In this document: positions 1 through 1,140 of the stretch, piece after piece
Layout: each line of letters opens with the position of its first letter
How positions within the stretch are numbered: position 1 is the first letter of the stretch
Assembly: GCF_003334815.1 (NCBI RefSeq)
Contig: NZ_QOWO01000105.1
DNA length: 1,140 bases
Direction: 5' to 3' (one strand)
From: Escherichia coli
Lineage (GTDB): Bacteria; Pseudomonadota; Gammaproteobacteria; Enterobacterales; Enterobacteriaceae
Notes under the pieces: generated by a model
Databases searched by the model: none
The model's input: only the letters and a program-made list of their open reading frames with translations
What the model was told of the DNA's origin: nothing
Made by a program: the position numbers and the translations under genes

Positions 1-8
1 ATGTGCGA
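1..8 (-). ncRNA. RNA-OUT: 5' end (first 8 nt) of antisense RNA-OUT; the rest of the ~70-nt RNA lies upstream of the window
   Basis: The reverse complement of nt 1-8 (atgtgcga) is TCGCACAT, which matches the 5' end of RNA-OUT as I recall it (5'-UCGCACAU...). In IS10 the RNA-OUT 5' end is a few nt inside the transposase start codon and pairs with the RBS/AUG region of the transposase mRNA (RNA-IN). Only the complement of the start codon and the next 5 nt is visible here. Confidence 0.6.
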
Positions 9-1140
9 ACTCGATATTTTACACGACTCTCTTTACCAATTCTGCCCCGAATTACACTTAAAACGACTCAACAGCTTAACGTTGGCTTGCCACGCATTAC
101 TTGACTGTAAAACTCTCACTCTTACCGAACTTGGCCGTAACCTGCCAACCAAAGCGAGAACAAAACATAACATCAAACGAATCGACCGATTGTTAGGTAA
201 TCGTCACCTCCACAAAGAGCGACTCGCTGTATACCGTTGGCATGCTAGCTTTATCTGTTCGGGCAATACGATGCCCATTGTACTTGTTGACTGGTCTGAT
301 ATTCGTGAGCAAAAACGACTTATGGTATTGCGAGCTTCAGTCGCACTACACGGTCGTTCTGTTACTCTTTATGAGAAAGCGTTCCCGCTTTCAGAGCAAT
401 GTTCAAAGAAAGCTCATGACCAATTTCTAGCCGACCTTGCGAGCATTCTACCGAGTAACACCACACCGCTCATTGTCAGTGATGCTGGCTTTAAAGTGCC
501 ATGGTATAAATCCGTTGAGAAGCTGGGTTGGTACTGGTTAAGTCGAGTAAGAGGAAAAGTACAATATGCAGACCTAGGAGCGGAAAACTGGAAACCTATC
601 AGCAACTTACATGATATGTCATCTAGTCACTCAAAGACTTTAGGCTATAAGAGGCTGACTAAAAGCAATCCAATCTCATGCCAAATTCTATTGTATAAAT
701 CTCGCTCTAAAGGCCGAAAAAATCAGCGCTCGACACGGACTCATTGTCACCACCCGTCACCTAAAATCTACTCAGCGTCGGCAAAGGAGCCATGGGTTCT
801 AGCAACTAACTTACCTGTTGAAATTCGAACACCCAAACAACTTGTTAATATCTATTCGAAGCGAATGCAGATTGAAGAAACCTTCCGAGACTTGAAAAGT
901 CCTGCCTACGGACTAGGCCTACGCCATAGCCGAACGAGCAGCTCAGAGCGTTTTGATATCATGCTGCTAATCGCCCTGATGCTTCAACTAACATGTTGGC
1001 TTGCGGGCGTTCATGCTCAGAAACAAGGTTGGGACAAGCACTTCCAGGCTAACACAGTCAGAAATCGAAACGTACTCTCAACAGTTCGCTTAGGCATGGA
1101 AGTTTTGCGGCATTCTGGCTACACAATAACAAGGGAAGAC
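1..1140 (+). CDS. tnp: IS10/Tn10 transposase (IS4 family, DDE transposase), 3'-partial: codons 1-380 of an expected ~402
   Basis: Manual frame-1 translation from nt 1 gives 380 codons with no stop: MCELDILHDSLYQFCPELHLKRLNSLTLACHALLDCKTLTLTELGRNLPTKARTKHNIKRIDRLLGNRHLHKERLAVYRWHASFICSGNTMPIVLVDWSD...QIEETFRDLKSPAYGLGLRHS...GYTITRED. This matches the IS10 transposase as I recall it, with DDE residues at the expected positions (D97 nt 289-291 gac; D161 nt 481-483 gat; E292 nt 874-876 gaa) and the YREK signature Y285/R288/E292/K299. The frame is open to the last base, so the CDS is truncated by the window edge. Recognition is from memory, not a database search. The symbol tnp follows the Tn10 literature; this gene has no universally fixed symbol. 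Confidence 0.95.
   Translation, partial: MCELDILHDSLYQFCPELHLKRLNSLTLACHALLDCKTLTLTELGRNLPTKARTKHNIKRIDRLLGNRHLHKERLAVYRWHASFICSGNTMPIVLVDWSDIREQKRLMVLRASVALHGRSVTLYEKAFPLSEQCSKKAHDQFLADLASILPSNTTPLIVSDAGFKVPWYKSVEKLGWYWLSRVRGKVQYADLGAENWKPISNLHDMSSSHSKTLGYKRLTKSNPISCQILLYKSRSKGRKNQRSTRTHCHHPSPKIYSASAKEPWVLATNLPVEIRTPKQLVNIYSKRMQIEETFRDLKSPAYGLGLRHSRTSSSERFDIMLLIALMLQLTCWLAGVHAQKQGWDKHFQANTVRNRNVLSTVRLGMEVLRHSGYTITRED
9..45 (-). promoter_or_regulatory. pOUT: pOUT promoter region driving RNA-OUT (minus strand); -10-like hexamer TAAAAT at nt 16-21, -35 not confidently placed
   Basis: On the minus strand, nt 16-21 read TAAAAT (5 of 6 match to TATAAT), about 8 nt upstream of the inferred RNA-OUT start at nt 8. 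Candidate -35 hexamers on the minus strand are weak or mis-spaced: TTGGTA at nt 34-39 has only a 12-bp spacer, and AGAATT/CAGAAT at nt 38-44 has a 16-17 bp spacer but poor consensus match. The location agrees with the established position of pOUT just inside the 5' end of the transposase gene, firing outward. Confidence 0.55.
289..876 (+). other. Span containing the DDE catalytic triad codons (D97 nt 289-291, D161 nt 481-483, E292 nt 874-876) of the transposase
   Basis: The codons gac, gat and gaa are read directly in frame at these positions. Assignment as the catalytic triad follows established knowledge of Tn10/IS4-family transposases. E292 lies within the YREK-type motif Y285-x2-R288-x3-E292-x6-K299 (IYSKRMQIEETFRDLK). 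Confidence 0.8.

Follow-up and report, generated by a model that had tools for sequence, protein, structure and literature searches.

A probable IS10-Right-type transposase gene of Escherichia coli with reference catalytic residues and cysteines at both ats positions

The window, i.e. the whole stretch of 1,140 nucleotides of Escherichia coli DNA that was analysed, is occupied over its full length by a transposase coding sequence (Table 1). Six-frame translation of positions 1-1140 revealed 380 codons and zero stops in frame +1, and 16 to 31 stops in each of the remaining five frames. The deduced protein is identical (380/380 amino acids) to the IS10-Right transposase of Tn10 from plasmid R100 (WP_001339197.1), and the nucleotide identity with this copy amounts to 1139/1140, with no indel. 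The transposase is encoded by a single ORF whose 380 visible codons contain neither stop nor indel relative to the R100 reference, in agreement with the initial annotation, which had described them as free of frameshift and premature stop. The window covers codons 1-380 and ends before the final 22 codons and the stop; the terminal inverted repeats, on either side, are likewise beyond its limits. The figure of about 22 unseen codons given in the initial annotation is exactly right, since 402 - 380 = 22.

Tn10, a tetracycline-resistance transposon, has IS10-Right as its active module, and IS10/Tn10 is among the best-studied transposable elements of bacteria. In NCBI, the reference protein WP_001339197.1 carries the name “IS4-like element ISVsa5 family transposase”, and the window protein scored 400.5 bits with the IS4-family model NF033591 of NCBIfam, the cut-off of which is 152. 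We consider it highly probable that the transposase gene of which the window represents the 5' 94% belongs to an insertion sequence of the IS10-Right type (IS4 family, IS10 subgroup). Alignment to a reference IS10R transposase, proposed in the initial annotation as a check, yields no substitution at the protein level, and its reading of the gene as an IS10/Tn10 transposase numbered after the reference is upheld by the identity with WP_001339197.1: since the protein equals the R100 reference, the residue numbering of the latter applies directly. The start codon and all the catalytic, YREK, base-stacking and ats residues of R100 IS10-Right (NC_002134) are as in the window. The transposase found here is the standard, extensively characterised and already known IS10-Right form, and the biological importance of the window is small, as it holds the standard form of a well-studied element. 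From its sequence, the enzyme is likely functional.

Table 1. Location of the features discussed in the text. Positions are those of the window, except for the last line, which refers to plasmid R100 (L003).
Feature	Position	Strand	Basis or remark
IS10 (Tn10) transposase CDS, codons 1-380 of 402, from ATG	1-1140	+	Open frame; identity to R100 IS10-Right
Predicted antisense RNA-OUT, first 8 nt, remainder upstream of the window	1-8	-	Rfam RF00240 in R100 IS10-Right
Sole difference from R100 IS10-Right: A for C, synonymous, Ala32 GCA/GCC	96	+	Alignment
DDE transposase catalytic domain, residues 90-327	268-981	+	Pfam PF01609 DDE_Tnp_1, E 2.1e-24
D97 (GAC), putative first catalytic aspartate	289-291	+	Translation; invariant 30/30; end of predicted strand 93-99
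C134 (TGT), first ats position, wild-type	400-402	+	Translation
D161 (GAT), putative second catalytic aspartate	481-483	+	Translation; invariant 30/30; right after predicted strand 157-160
C249 (TGT), second ats position, wild-type	745-747	+	Translation
W265 (TGG), stacks on flipped base in hairpin processing	793-795	+	Invariant 30/30; equivalent to Tn5 W298
YREK signature, Y285-x2-R288-x3-E292-x6-K299	853-897	+	Y, R, M and E invariant, K 29/30
Y285 (TAT)	853-855	+	Translation
R288 (CGA)	862-864	+	Translation
M289, probe residue in the YREK signature	865-867	+	Invariant in homologues
E292 (GAA), putative catalytic glutamate	874-876	+	Translation; invariant
K299 (AAA)	895-897	+	Translation; 29/30 homologues
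Last 22 codons, R100 IS10-Right and IS10-Left	L003:43963-44031 and 37379-37447		Amino acids 381, 389 and 398 differ

Plasmid R100 (NC_002134; L003), which carries a complete Tn10, was used as the reference. Its transposon is organised as an IS10 copy by gltS, then tetR, tet(B) and tetC together with a helix-turn-helix gene, and a second IS10 copy. Following the published Tn10 map, we take the copy adjoining gltS to be IS10-Left and the other one IS10-Right. Each of them is 1329 bp long and begins with CTGATGAATCC; elements of the IS10 subgroup are characterised by a length of 1200-1350 bp, 5'-CT ends and a target duplication of 9 bp. Nucleotide 96 is a C in both of these copies and an A in the window; the A96 form predominates among complete E. 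coli genomes, 1552 of the 1913 matching records showing no mismatch over window positions 61-131.

The 5' end of the gene is expected to overlap the antisense regulator of the element. RF00240 of Rfam was detected with 98.8 bits at positions 45164-45233 of L003, opposite the IS10-Right CDS (43963-45171), and the first 8 nt of RNA-OUT overlap transposase codons 1-3 in this R100 copy. Only these 8 nt would fall inside the window, too short a stretch for detection there, and the Rfam scan of the window gave zero matches. A simple promoter scan of the window returned no sigma-70-like or pOUT-like site at the thresholds used; pOUT is presumably located at roughly positions 9-45 of the window, on the minus strand. 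A single terminator-like hairpin, at positions 261-276, corresponds to chance level. Expression of the IS10 transposase is held down by RNA-OUT and Hfq (PMC4265352).

The residues on which transposition is expected to depend were located by translation. D97, D161 and E292, as well as Y285, R288 and K299, are present at the codons to which the initial annotation had assigned them, and the interval 289-897 that it delimited has codons 97 and 299 as its exact limits. The spacing of Y285, R288, E292 and K299 is exactly that of the Y-(2)-R-(3)-E-(6)-K signature as defined in PMC2266710. When 30 full-length homologues sharing 47-81% identity were aligned, only 60 of the 402 positions proved invariant, and D97, D161, E292, Y285, R288, W265 and M289 are among them, K299 being kept in 29 of the 30 sequences. 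Taken with the identity to the R100 protein, this conservation indicates that the placement of the named residues goes beyond chance. In hairpin processing, W265 is described as the residue stacking on the flipped base (PMC2705183).

The AlphaFold2 model of the transposase (pLDDT 86.9, pTM 0.86) displays strands at residues 93-99, 107-116, 119-129, 157-160 and 178-182 and helices at 136-149 and 166-174, followed by a beta-rich insertion (about 188-269) and by helices 278-286 and 289-299, the latter bearing E292. D97, D161 and E292 are placed as expected in this predicted RNase H-like fold. When the model was submitted to Foldseek, the top five PDB matches were all the Tn5 transposase or its inhibitor, with a probability of 1.00 and best values of E 3.6e-10 and TM 0.59/0.53. 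The predicted fold is thus shared with the Tn5/IS50 transposase (PDB 1MUH, 1MM8, 1MUS, 3ECP and 4DM0), which also has in common with the IS10 enzyme the YREK motif and the stacking tryptophan, as well as a hairpin cut-and-paste mechanism (PMC2705183). The two enzymes nevertheless share only 11-13% identity in structural alignment and differ in length (402 amino acids for IS10, 476-477 for Tn5) and at the probe position, which is M289 in IS10 and W323 in Tn5.

With the window protein as query, phmmer retrieved nothing from the PDB sequences (E up to 1), and hmmsearch with the 30-sequence profile did not retrieve the Tn5 transposase, its only hit, to sarcospan, being a chance one; the distance to the Tn5 transposase exceeds the reach of these two methods. 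Using hhalign and a Tn5 sequence verified against PDB chains 3ECP and 1MUH, the profile paired residues 264-322 of IS10 with 297-353 of Tn5 (E 0.0017), bringing together W265 and W298, Y285 and Y319, R288 and R322, M289 and W323, E292 and E326, and K299 and K333 (IS10 and Tn5, respectively). This pairing of the tryptophan and of the YREK residues agrees with PMC2705183. The hhalign alignment, reliable only over IS10 264-322, does not include a pairing of D97 and D161 with D97 and D188 of Tn5. An extended alignment obtained at a low threshold was discarded, as it had zero confidence upstream and left D97 and D161 unpaired with these Tn5 residues.

We take D97, D161 and E292 to be the catalytic triad of the Tn10 transposase, a numbering that comes from general knowledge; a statement of it as the Tn10 triad was not found in the searchable literature, where one mention of “D97A” refers to the Tn5 transposase. 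Their invariance and their position in the predicted fold, together with prior knowledge, point to a catalytic role for D97 and D161. E292 would complete the triad on the grounds of general knowledge, conservation, the alignment with Tn5 and, again, its place in the predicted fold.

Both ats positions are occupied by cysteines, as the initial annotation had read them at nucleotides 400-402 and 745-747. It had also assigned the mutants with altered target specificity to Cys-to-Tyr changes at residues 134 and 249, which is borne out by PMC2229646, where C134Y and C249Y are presented, with reference to Bender & Kleckner 1992, as two Tn10 transposase mutations lowering target specificity. According to the same article, C134 is equivalent to A157 of Tn5, in a proposed DNA-binding channel, and C249 to the buried L283 of Tn5. 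The target consensus 5'-NGCTNAGCN-3' with its 9-bp duplication, likewise given in the initial annotation, is found in PMC4574204, which attributes it to Halling & Kleckner 1982 and mentions its later loosening to NPuCNN-NGPyN. A 9-bp direct repeat, CGCTCTGCC, borders Tn10 on either side in R100 (L003:36117-36131 and 45279-45293); it is a partial match to GCTNAGC in which the GCT half is full and the AGC half shares two of its three bases (TGC). Cysteines at positions 134 and 249 should imply wild-type target choice, and we regard this inference, made in the initial annotation, as reasonable.

These two positions vary among homologues. Position 134 is an asparagine in 21 of the 30 sequences and a cysteine in six, and position 249 is an arginine in nine, a cysteine in eight and a serine in five, with other residues in the rest; in the model, C249 lies in a loop of lower confidence (pLDDT about 58-61). 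Such variation might indicate that the ats positions are natural tuning points and that IS10 relatives differ in target strictness, an idea drawn from residue comparison that we consider rather unlikely. It concerns the IS10 subgroup, the window itself being plain wild-type IS10-Right.

On the basis of established work on Tn10 and Tn5, the activity of the encoded enzyme may be pictured as follows. The transposase would bind to both ends of IS10, joined by IHF at the outside end, and pair them in a transpososome. In each monomer, one active site holding two metal ions would nick the transferred strand, after which a hairpin would be formed on the transposon end and then resolved. The 3'-OH ends would finally be joined to the target at positions staggered by 9 bp, completing cut-and-paste transposition. 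With C134 and C249, the enzyme would be expected to favour NGCTNAGCN-like sites, as the wild type does, and not to show the relaxed ats pattern. The antisense RNA-OUT, with its start 8 nt into the window (minus strand), would keep expression low.

The sequence is widely distributed. Megablast returned 2182 matching records from 1820 of 5426 complete E. coli genomes (about a third), 2177 of these records being at >=99% identity, and matches, likewise at >=99% identity, were also obtained in 2269 plasmids from Escherichia, Klebsiella, Salmonella, Vibrio and others. The chromosomal copy of E. coli TUM9868 (L001, CDS 2807-4015, WP_001339197.1), which adjoins tetC and tet(B), is identical to the window over 1140/1140 nt and was the one identical full copy examined. 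The 69 nt that follow the equivalent of the window in this genome comprise 22 codons (LLVAATLLAQNLFTHGYALGKL) and then TGA, giving 402 amino acids with no frameshift and an IS10-Right-type tail (L381, A389, A398); 13 nt separate the TGA from the inside end of the element, which is 1329 bp long. This copy shows the form of the complete gene and does not establish completeness for the copy in the window. If the latter is complete, TTACTCGTGGCTGCAACCCTACTAGCTCAAAATTTATTCACACATGGTTACGCTTTGGGGAAATTATGA is to be expected 3' of the window, then GGGGATCTCTCAG.

A different reading of the locus is that the visible ORF, intact as it is, belongs to a truncated, interrupted or immobile copy, such as a remnant of Tn10 that has lost an end or has been cut by IS1 or IS26, so that the locus would hold no working element or full-length transposase. 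Several features of the distribution lend it some weight: in just 1438 of the 2182 E. coli records does the match span 80% or more of the window at a single place, IS1 or IS26 transposase annotations also apply to many of the matches listed, partial IS10 pseudogenes lie beside a full copy in E. coli BY63, and the IS10 of the TUM9868 record abuts a truncated helix-turn-helix gene, which we take to be tetD. Against this, the window is undamaged, with 1140 contiguous nucleotides and no indel relative to the reference, and identical full-length copies are common. We regard a truncated or immobile copy as clearly unlikely.

The window could alternatively derive from IS10-Left, the weak, poorly active copy of Tn10, or from a Left/Right mosaic with an IS10-Left-type C-terminus. 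The IS10-Left transposase of R100 (WP_001352368.1) has 379 of the 380 amino acids and 1136 of the 1140 nucleotides in common with the window, and three of the four amino acid differences between the two R100 transposases (L381S, A389T and A398V, from Right to Left) are situated in the unseen last 22 codons. The mosaic outside end of the TUM9868 copy suggests that exchange between the two types does occur. The visible part nevertheless argues for IS10-Right: the window has V266 where IS10-Left has I266, along with three further nucleotide differences from it, and it carries the IS10-Right base at positions 303, 318 and 796, which are all the in-window sites separating the R100 copies. As the tail of the identical TUM9868 copy is moreover of the IS10-Right type, an IS10-Left origin or tail is very improbable. 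The probability that the sequence comes from a mini-Tn10 delivery vector with an engineered ats1 ats2 transposase is negligible. Such constructs are in wide use (PMC1929150), but this candidate was rejected because codons 134 and 249 both encode Cys and not Tyr. For annotation, the window is best labelled as an IS10-Right-type transposase gene and not as a mini-Tn10 ats mutant.

The outside end of the TUM9868 copy (L001:2700-2806) was typed by comparison with both R100 copies. It associates the IS10-Left-type TTTTTATCAAAATC and AAGGTAGATAC with the IS10-Right-type TTCGCGAAAA and CAAGATG, a mosaic whose sequence suggests exchange between the IS10-Right and IS10-Left types. In E. coli BY63 (L002:1659-4205), the full IS10 copy is situated between the two partial IS10 pseudogenes, an arrangement that suggests insertion of one IS10 into another.

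IS10 is known to contaminate clones grown in commonly used laboratory strains of E. coli. UniRef also lists the exact 402-aa IS10-Right transposase under the name “Uncharacterized protein DKFZp686P13170” (Q6AW98_HUMAN), which looks like an IS10 of the cloning host inserted into a human cDNA clone. The 90% UniRef cluster of this entry also lists 258-aa ThrE exporter proteins, the presence of which looks like a clustering artefact.
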